DNA from: Escherichia coli
Lineage (GTDB): Bacteria; Pseudomonadota; Gammaproteobacteria; Enterobacterales; Enterobacteriaceae
Direction: 5' to 3' (one strand)
Assembly: GCF_003334305.1 (NCBI RefSeq)
Contig: NZ_QOWS01000007.1
DNA: 64,000 nt
Part shown: positions 34,074 to 34,089 of the stretch, piece after piece
Layout of the letters: each line of letters begins with the position of its first letter
Position numbering within the stretch: position 1 is the first letter of the stretch
Notes under the pieces: model-generated
Told to the model about the DNA's origin: nothing
Database searches by the model: none
What the model saw: only the letters and a program-made list of their open reading frames with translations
Made by a program: the position numbers and the translations under genes

Positions 34074-34089
34074 ACGAAACCGTTTGCGT
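34074..34089 (-). promoter_or_regulatory. PurR operator (PUR box) upstream of purL
   Basis: Minus-strand ACGCAAACGGTTTCGT, 15/16 match to remembered PUR box ACGCAAACGTTTTCGT, about 80 nt upstream of purL ATG. Confidence 0.65.

Follow-up and report, generated by a model that had tools for sequence, protein, structure and literature searches.

The purL–mltF Intergenic Region

The window—the whole 64-kb stretch of Escherichia coli DNA analyzed here—carries purL on the minus strand and mltF on the plus strand as divergent ORFs separated by a 257-bp gap. The purL ORF matches the NCBIfam equivalog NF003672 at 2272 bits (curated cutoff 783), and the mltF ORF matches NF008112 at 754 bits (cutoff 354). 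Gene order around them (yphH-glyA-hmpA-glnB-glrR-qseG-qseE-purL-mltF-tadA) is that of E. coli. All 5426 complete E. coli genomes searched contain a 501-bp query spanning the gap element described below, every copy being chromosomal and annotated purL/mltF, which identifies the window as E. coli chromosome; in a genome 100% identical across the query, the RefSeq annotation likewise names the flanking genes purL and mltF.

Within the gap, positions 34074–34089 read ACGAAACCGTTTGCGT on the plus strand and ACGCAAACGGTTTCGT on the minus strand (16 bases), with the purL start codon 77 nt downstream. Throughout, a PUR box is a 16-bp imperfect palindrome fitting ACGNAAACGTTTGCNT, alternatively written ACGCAAACGTTTTCNT. 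The minus-strand 16-mer differs at one position from the PUR-box consensus ACGCAAACGTTTTCGT and at one position, window 34080, from the ChIP-derived PurR motif ACGNAAACGTTTGCNT (Cho et al. 2011, PMC3159470). It is self-complementary at 12 of its 16 positions and retains the central CpG (34081–34082, 16-mer positions 8–9), which carries 1.72 bits per column in the PurR matrix introduced below. A preliminary description of this DNA had placed a minus-strand PUR box with one mismatch in the purL/mltF divergent region: The 16-mer bears out the first part, and the ORFs, NCBIfam matches, and RefSeq annotation bear out the second. Coordinates of the site, its flanking genes, and the associated promoter features are collected in the feature table.

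Feature table. Coordinates and supporting evidence for the purL–mltF region and the glyA locus (window numbering)
Feature	Coordinates	Strand	Evidence or remarks
glyA CDS	22690..23943	-	
glyA PUR box	24062-24077		ACGCAAACGATTACCT on +, AGGTAATCGTTTGCGT in Table 1 of PMC3159470; 119-134 nt upstream of glyA
purL CDS, phosphoribosylformylglycinamidine synthase, 1295 aa, regulated gene	30110..33997	-	ORF, NCBIfam, RefSeq
Conserved block CGCCCGTTTCCCCCC, GC-rich discriminator plus putative first ~10 transcribed nt	34034..34048	-	1.0-1.9 bits/column, 66 sequences
-10 hexamer TATAAT of the putative purL promoter	34051..34056	-	consensus hexamer, spacing in 63/63
-35-position hexamer TTTCGT (weak vs TTGACA), inside the PUR box, putative	34074..34079	-	geometry
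PUR box / PurR operator of purL	34074..34089	-	ACGCAAACGGTTTCGT, matrix score, Table 1 (PMC3159470) identity, conservation
A/T-rich block GATTTTATTTC	34090..34100	-	adjoins box upstream, about -56..-46 of the putative start
Probable mltF promoter, TTGCCA - 17 nt - CAAAAT	34146..34174	+	promoter scan, cross-species footprint
mltF CDS, lytic transglycosylase MltF, 518 aa, divergent neighbor	34255..35811	+	ORF, NCBIfam, RefSeq

The purL Box Scores Well above Chance

A consensus search allowing at most three mismatches found three sites in the 64-kb window against 1.04 expected. Because such a count is uninformative alone, we built a calibrated PurR matrix from the 28 motifs of Table 1 in Cho et al. 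(PMC3159470), leaving out the purL entry so that 27 sites remained. On this leave-one-out matrix the purL box scores 22.16 bits; the published sites span 12–25 bits, with purL in the upper half of the 28. An exact null puts this score at P = 1.7e-8 per position, corresponding to 0.002 expected sites in 2 × 64 kb and 0.16 per E. coli genome. In 300 dinucleotide-preserving shuffles of the window, no position scored as high (mean maximum 15.6 bits, highest 21.9). A calibrated scan of this kind had been proposed in the preliminary description as a check on the box, and it returned 22.2 bits, above chance.

The glyA box, at 21.6–22.5 bits, is the sole other strong PurR site in the 64-kb window, and its score is about equal to that of the purL box; a comparison with glyA had been suggested alongside the scan. 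The purL box stands ~10 bits above all other window positions except the glyA box; with both boxes set aside, the remaining positions reach at most 12.7 bits, which is chance level.

The third-best matrix match, TTGAAATCGTTTGCAT at 25912–25927 (12.7 bits; 1.3 such matches expected per window), lies at the 3′ end of glrR, 68–83 nt upstream of the glnB start (25844, minus strand). glnB is a published PurR target that was not recovered by ChIP in Cho et al. (PMC3159470). The match may be a weak glnB operator; because 12.7 bits is chance level, we leave it unclaimed on score alone.

Conservation of the Box across purL Loci

We assembled purL loci from 80 species, one genome each, ranging from Escherichia to Pseudoalteromonas. 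The search was seeded on the N-terminal 220 residues of PurL, and the sample is therefore independent of the box. For the 79 usable loci, the 300 nt upstream of purL were scanned with the purL-excluded matrix. In 65 of the 79, a box scoring at least 18 bits is located 67–155 nt 5′ of the purL start codon, and 3 of 313 control segments of equal size from the same loci reach at least 15 bits.

Of the 64 Enterobacterales loci, 63 have the box, and only three variants of it occur: ACGCAAACGGTTTCGT (44 loci), GCGCAAACGGTTTCGT (16 loci), and ACGCAAACGGTTACGT (3 loci). Both Vibrionaceae loci have it as well, reading ACGCAAACGGTTGCGT or GCGCAAACGGTTGCGT. The matrix scan of the 300 nt 5′ of purL found no box in the Aeromonas, Pseudoalteromonas, Tolumonas, Catenovulum, Alkalimonas, or Psychrosphaera loci. 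The single base that departs from consensus—G on the minus strand in place of T, at box position 9 (window 34080)—shows no variation among the 65 box-bearing loci, Vibrionaceae included. This invariance suggests selection for a specific sub-consensus operator or for promoter function.

mltF is the divergent neighbor of purL in 75 of the 80 loci. The box lies 163–166 nt from the mltF start codon in ~52 of 63 Enterobacterales, whereas its distance to the purL ATG varies more (67–133 nt). The box–mltF distance is near-fixed despite ~40 nt of unconserved sequence in between (window 34090–34254, loci L002–L065).

Several individual loci deserve description in their own right. The sole Enterobacterales locus without a purL box comes from Pantoea sp. 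Nvir, a Nezara viridula symbiont (L066), in which the mltF neighbor is also missing; both absences are consistent with a reduced symbiont genome that has lost the regulation. Four Aeromonas loci (L073, L075, L076, and L078) share a conserved palindrome-like sequence, AGAAAAACGTTTGTTC or TGAAAAACGTTTGTCC, 71–73 nt 5′ of purL. It keeps the PUR-box core AAAACGTTT with the outer ACG/CGT arms replaced, scores ~5–7 bits on the E. coli matrix, and may represent a diverged operator for an Aeromonas PurR-like regulator.

The control-segment matches of at least 15 bits were considered as regulatory sites and rejected, as they trace to a match that recurs in the purL coding sequence near codon +550. This PurR-like match, ACGAAATCGATTACCT (15–18 bits), lies within the purL CDS at codons ~+547 to +553 (L037, 2054; L050, 2051; L068, 2048), a homologous position in Erwinia, Hafnia, and Pseudoalteromonas. 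Its recurrence is most likely a coincidence of codons.

Anatomy of the Predicted purL Promoter

An ungapped, box-anchored footprint of 66 sequences resolves the box at ~2 bits per column, flanked by 40 nt upstream and 10 nt downstream at ~0.1–0.3 bits, with a second conserved island, gaTTCTcTATAATg, downstream of the box. The hexamer at box +33 to +38 is TATAAT in 60 and TATACT in 3 of the box-bearing Enterobacterales, at the same 17-nt spacing in 63 of 63. Since TATAAT follows the box at exactly 17 nt, the 3′-terminal six bases of the box occupy the −35 position of purL; the overlap between box and −35 element is thus predicted from the conserved −10 hexamer and its spacing. On this geometry, purL transcription would start at about 34043–34044, ~7 nt past the −10 hexamer, and the box would extend from about −45 to −30, centered near −37.5.

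Our consensus promoter scan returned no minus-strand purL promoter, its threshold excluding a −35 hexamer as weak as TTTCGT. The A/T-rich block directly upstream of the box is conserved in Enterobacteriaceae and A/T-rich in other families, and appears to resemble an UP element. Together, the weak −35, the consensus −10, and the upstream A/T block imply upstream promoter contacts that a bound PurR dimer would cover.

The conserved block immediately 3′ of the −10 hexamer, also written CGCCCGTTT(T)CCCCC, is bordered by columns of ~0.1–0.3 bits. The 7-nt discriminator past the hexamer averages 84% G+C, and the purL transcript would open with G followed by runs of T and then C (invariant G-TTT(T)-CCCC). 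A riboswitch or leader-structure reading of this block was rejected: An Rfam scan of 33900–34300 at E ≤ 1 returned no RNA family, and RNAalifold on 15 purL leaders found 0 conserved pairs, so the block is neither a known RNA element nor an evident one.

The GC-rich discriminator, the invariant transcript start, and the near-fixed box–mltF distance could indicate that purL initiation has a second, PurR-independent layer of control, or that the purL and mltF promoters are held in a functional fixed phase. We give this idea an outside chance. Speculatively, such a layer might involve ppGpp/DksA sensitivity, start-site selection that senses NTPs, or reiterative transcription like that of carAB/pyrBI; a literature search on a ppGpp-type discriminator at purL found nothing specific.

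Published Evidence for PurR at purL

Table 1 of Cho et al. (NAR 39:6456, PMC3159470) gives ACGAAACCGTTTGCGT as the purL PurR motif, at MG1655 2,693,642–2,693,657. The same table reports PurR ChIP-chip enrichment of the purL region at log2 1.88 with adenine and no peak without adenine. That study groups purL with previously characterized PurR-binding promoters and names it as one of the IMP-pathway genes under PurR–hypoxanthine repression (PMC3159470). ChIP-chip resolution for purL is a 225-bp region, so ChIP alone is no proof of contact with the 16-mer; assignment of the 16-mer as the PurR contact comes from motif analysis and older in vitro work. Reviews and a RegulonDB evidence paper trace PurR control of pur genes, purL included, to He et al. 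1990 and Meng et al. 1990.

Evidence from a second genus points the same way as the E. coli data: In a Yersinia pestis purR deletion, purL rises by log2 1.90 and 2.83 in two tables (PMC10673613), and the Yersinia species of the 80-locus set carry an identical purL box. A full-text literature search with the exact 16-mer matched no paper; Table 1 of PMC3159470 prints the other orientation. PurR repression of purL, which the preliminary description had put forward, finds support in the published 16-mer, the adenine-dependent occupancy, and the reported repression of the IMP pathway, and purine-dependent regulation is itself on record (PMC3159470). Beyond mere membership of the PUR-box family, 34074–34089 is the already catalogued purL operator of E. 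coli.

Older biochemistry reportedly agrees, He and colleagues being said to have found in 1990 that PurR specifically binds, at every pur locus including purL, an operator of 16 bp that overlaps the promoter. Theirs was reportedly the first description of the purL operator (J Bacteriol 172:4555); the operator is curated in RegulonDB.

Proposed Mechanism

E. coli carries purR, which lies outside the 64-kb window. Positions 34074–34089 are almost certainly the PUR box through which PurR acts on the E. coli purL promoter, and no finding contradicts this. With purines in plentiful supply, PurR, a repressor of the LacI/GalR family, would bind hypoxanthine or guanine, and the PurR dimer would then bind the 16-bp near-palindrome. 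Because the box covers the −35 position, bound PurR would compete with RNA polymerase for the contacts made by sigma region 4 and the alpha-CTD, and purL initiation would be blocked. When purines are scarce, the free repressor would come off the operator, and purL would be transcribed. Classical occlusion of RNA polymerase by corepressor-bound PurR is the best-supported mechanism, and we infer its steric mode. This reading joins the sequence, score, conservation, and −10 spacing determined here with the adenine-dependent in vivo occupancy and purR-dependent purL expression taken from the papers.

Alternative Readings of the Box

The box might also, or mainly, control mltF, with PurR repressing an overlapping plus-strand promoter. 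The consensus scan does find a plus-strand promoter-like site overlapping the box (CTGACG, 18 nt, TAAAAT; 34071–34100), and the distance from box to mltF start codon is strikingly constant. However, the −35 part of that site is unconserved outside the box, its TAAAAT is conserved within Enterobacteriaceae only, and a more credible, conserved mltF promoter-like element lies elsewhere, at 34146–34174. Across Enterobacterales, both hexamer regions of the latter are conserved; in purL orientation they read gGCATTTTGC and GCAACTTATT. From this promoter, mltF transcription would start near 34181 with a leader of ~74 nt, which would place the PUR box center ~100 bp upstream of the start. A box near −100 of that start could not occlude the 34146–34174 promoter. 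The element that does keep an invariant distance to the box is the purL −10 hexamer (63 of 63), and Cho et al. (PMC3159470) credit the binding region to purL only. We consider a role of the box at mltF improbable.

It is very unlikely that the site is bound and used chiefly not by PurR but by a different member of the LacI/GalR family whose half-site is similar. LacI-family operators commonly have a central CG and a palindromic layout, and RbsR has been reported at the purHD promoter, both of which would fit such a regulator. Against it, the site reaches its 22.2 bits on a matrix made solely of PurR ChIP sites, and the PurR-specific ChIP enrichment of the region is adenine-dependent (PMC3159470). 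PurR footprinting and the loss of purL regulation in a purR deletion have also been reported in the literature for E. coli, and the absence of the box from Aeromonas, Pseudoalteromonas, and Alteromonadales-type genomes would fit a lineage-specific PurR regulon.

A chance consensus match without regulatory role, which the 1.04 matches expected at three mismatches might invite, is for practical purposes refuted by the matrix null and the shuffles, by retention of the box in 63 Enterobacterales genomes amid randomized flanks, and by ChIP-chip occupancy.

Significance and Comparison with Known Operators

The PurR operator of purL serves here as a positive control: An established operator was recognizable from raw sequence, and the matrix parted the true PurR sites (purL and glyA, ~22 bits) from the window background (≤13 bits). 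The purL box is one of the operators by which E. coli turns off de novo purine synthesis once purines are at hand; on the purine-repression circuit itself the present analysis adds nothing new, the operator being already known. Its modest refinement is that Enterobacterales keep the box, the non-consensus base, and the 17-nt spacing to the −10 hexamer invariant.

The site belongs to a class of 16-bp pseudo-palindromic operators at which, in LacI/GalR-type complexes, hinge helices kink the central CpG step by intercalation. Crystal structures of PurR–hypoxanthine–DNA complexes on the purF operator were reportedly obtained by Schumacher and colleagues in 1994, a study cited in PMC10912719. The purF site, AAGAAAACGTTTGCGT, has the GTTTGCGT arm in common with the purL site; the two differ at position 7 in the orientation of the published table (window 34080), where purL has C, not A.

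The glyA box shares with the purL box a length of 16 bp, a central CpG, and one perfect GTTTGCGT arm, and it too precedes a PurR-regulated gene. Its second arm differs (AGGTAATC at glyA vs. ACGAAACC at purL), as does its occupancy: glyA is bound also without adenine (log2 1.13), whereas purL is bound with adenine only (PMC3159470). The spacing between the two boxes is 10,012 nt here and 9,994 nt in MG1655 (Table 1, PMC3159470), which points to a small strain indel elsewhere in the glyA–purL interval; the DNA probably comes from a strain other than MG1655. The closest known counterpart is the purL operator of E. coli K-12 (PMC3159470): With an identical 16-mer, the same flanking genes, and the same 77 nt to purL, it is the same element.
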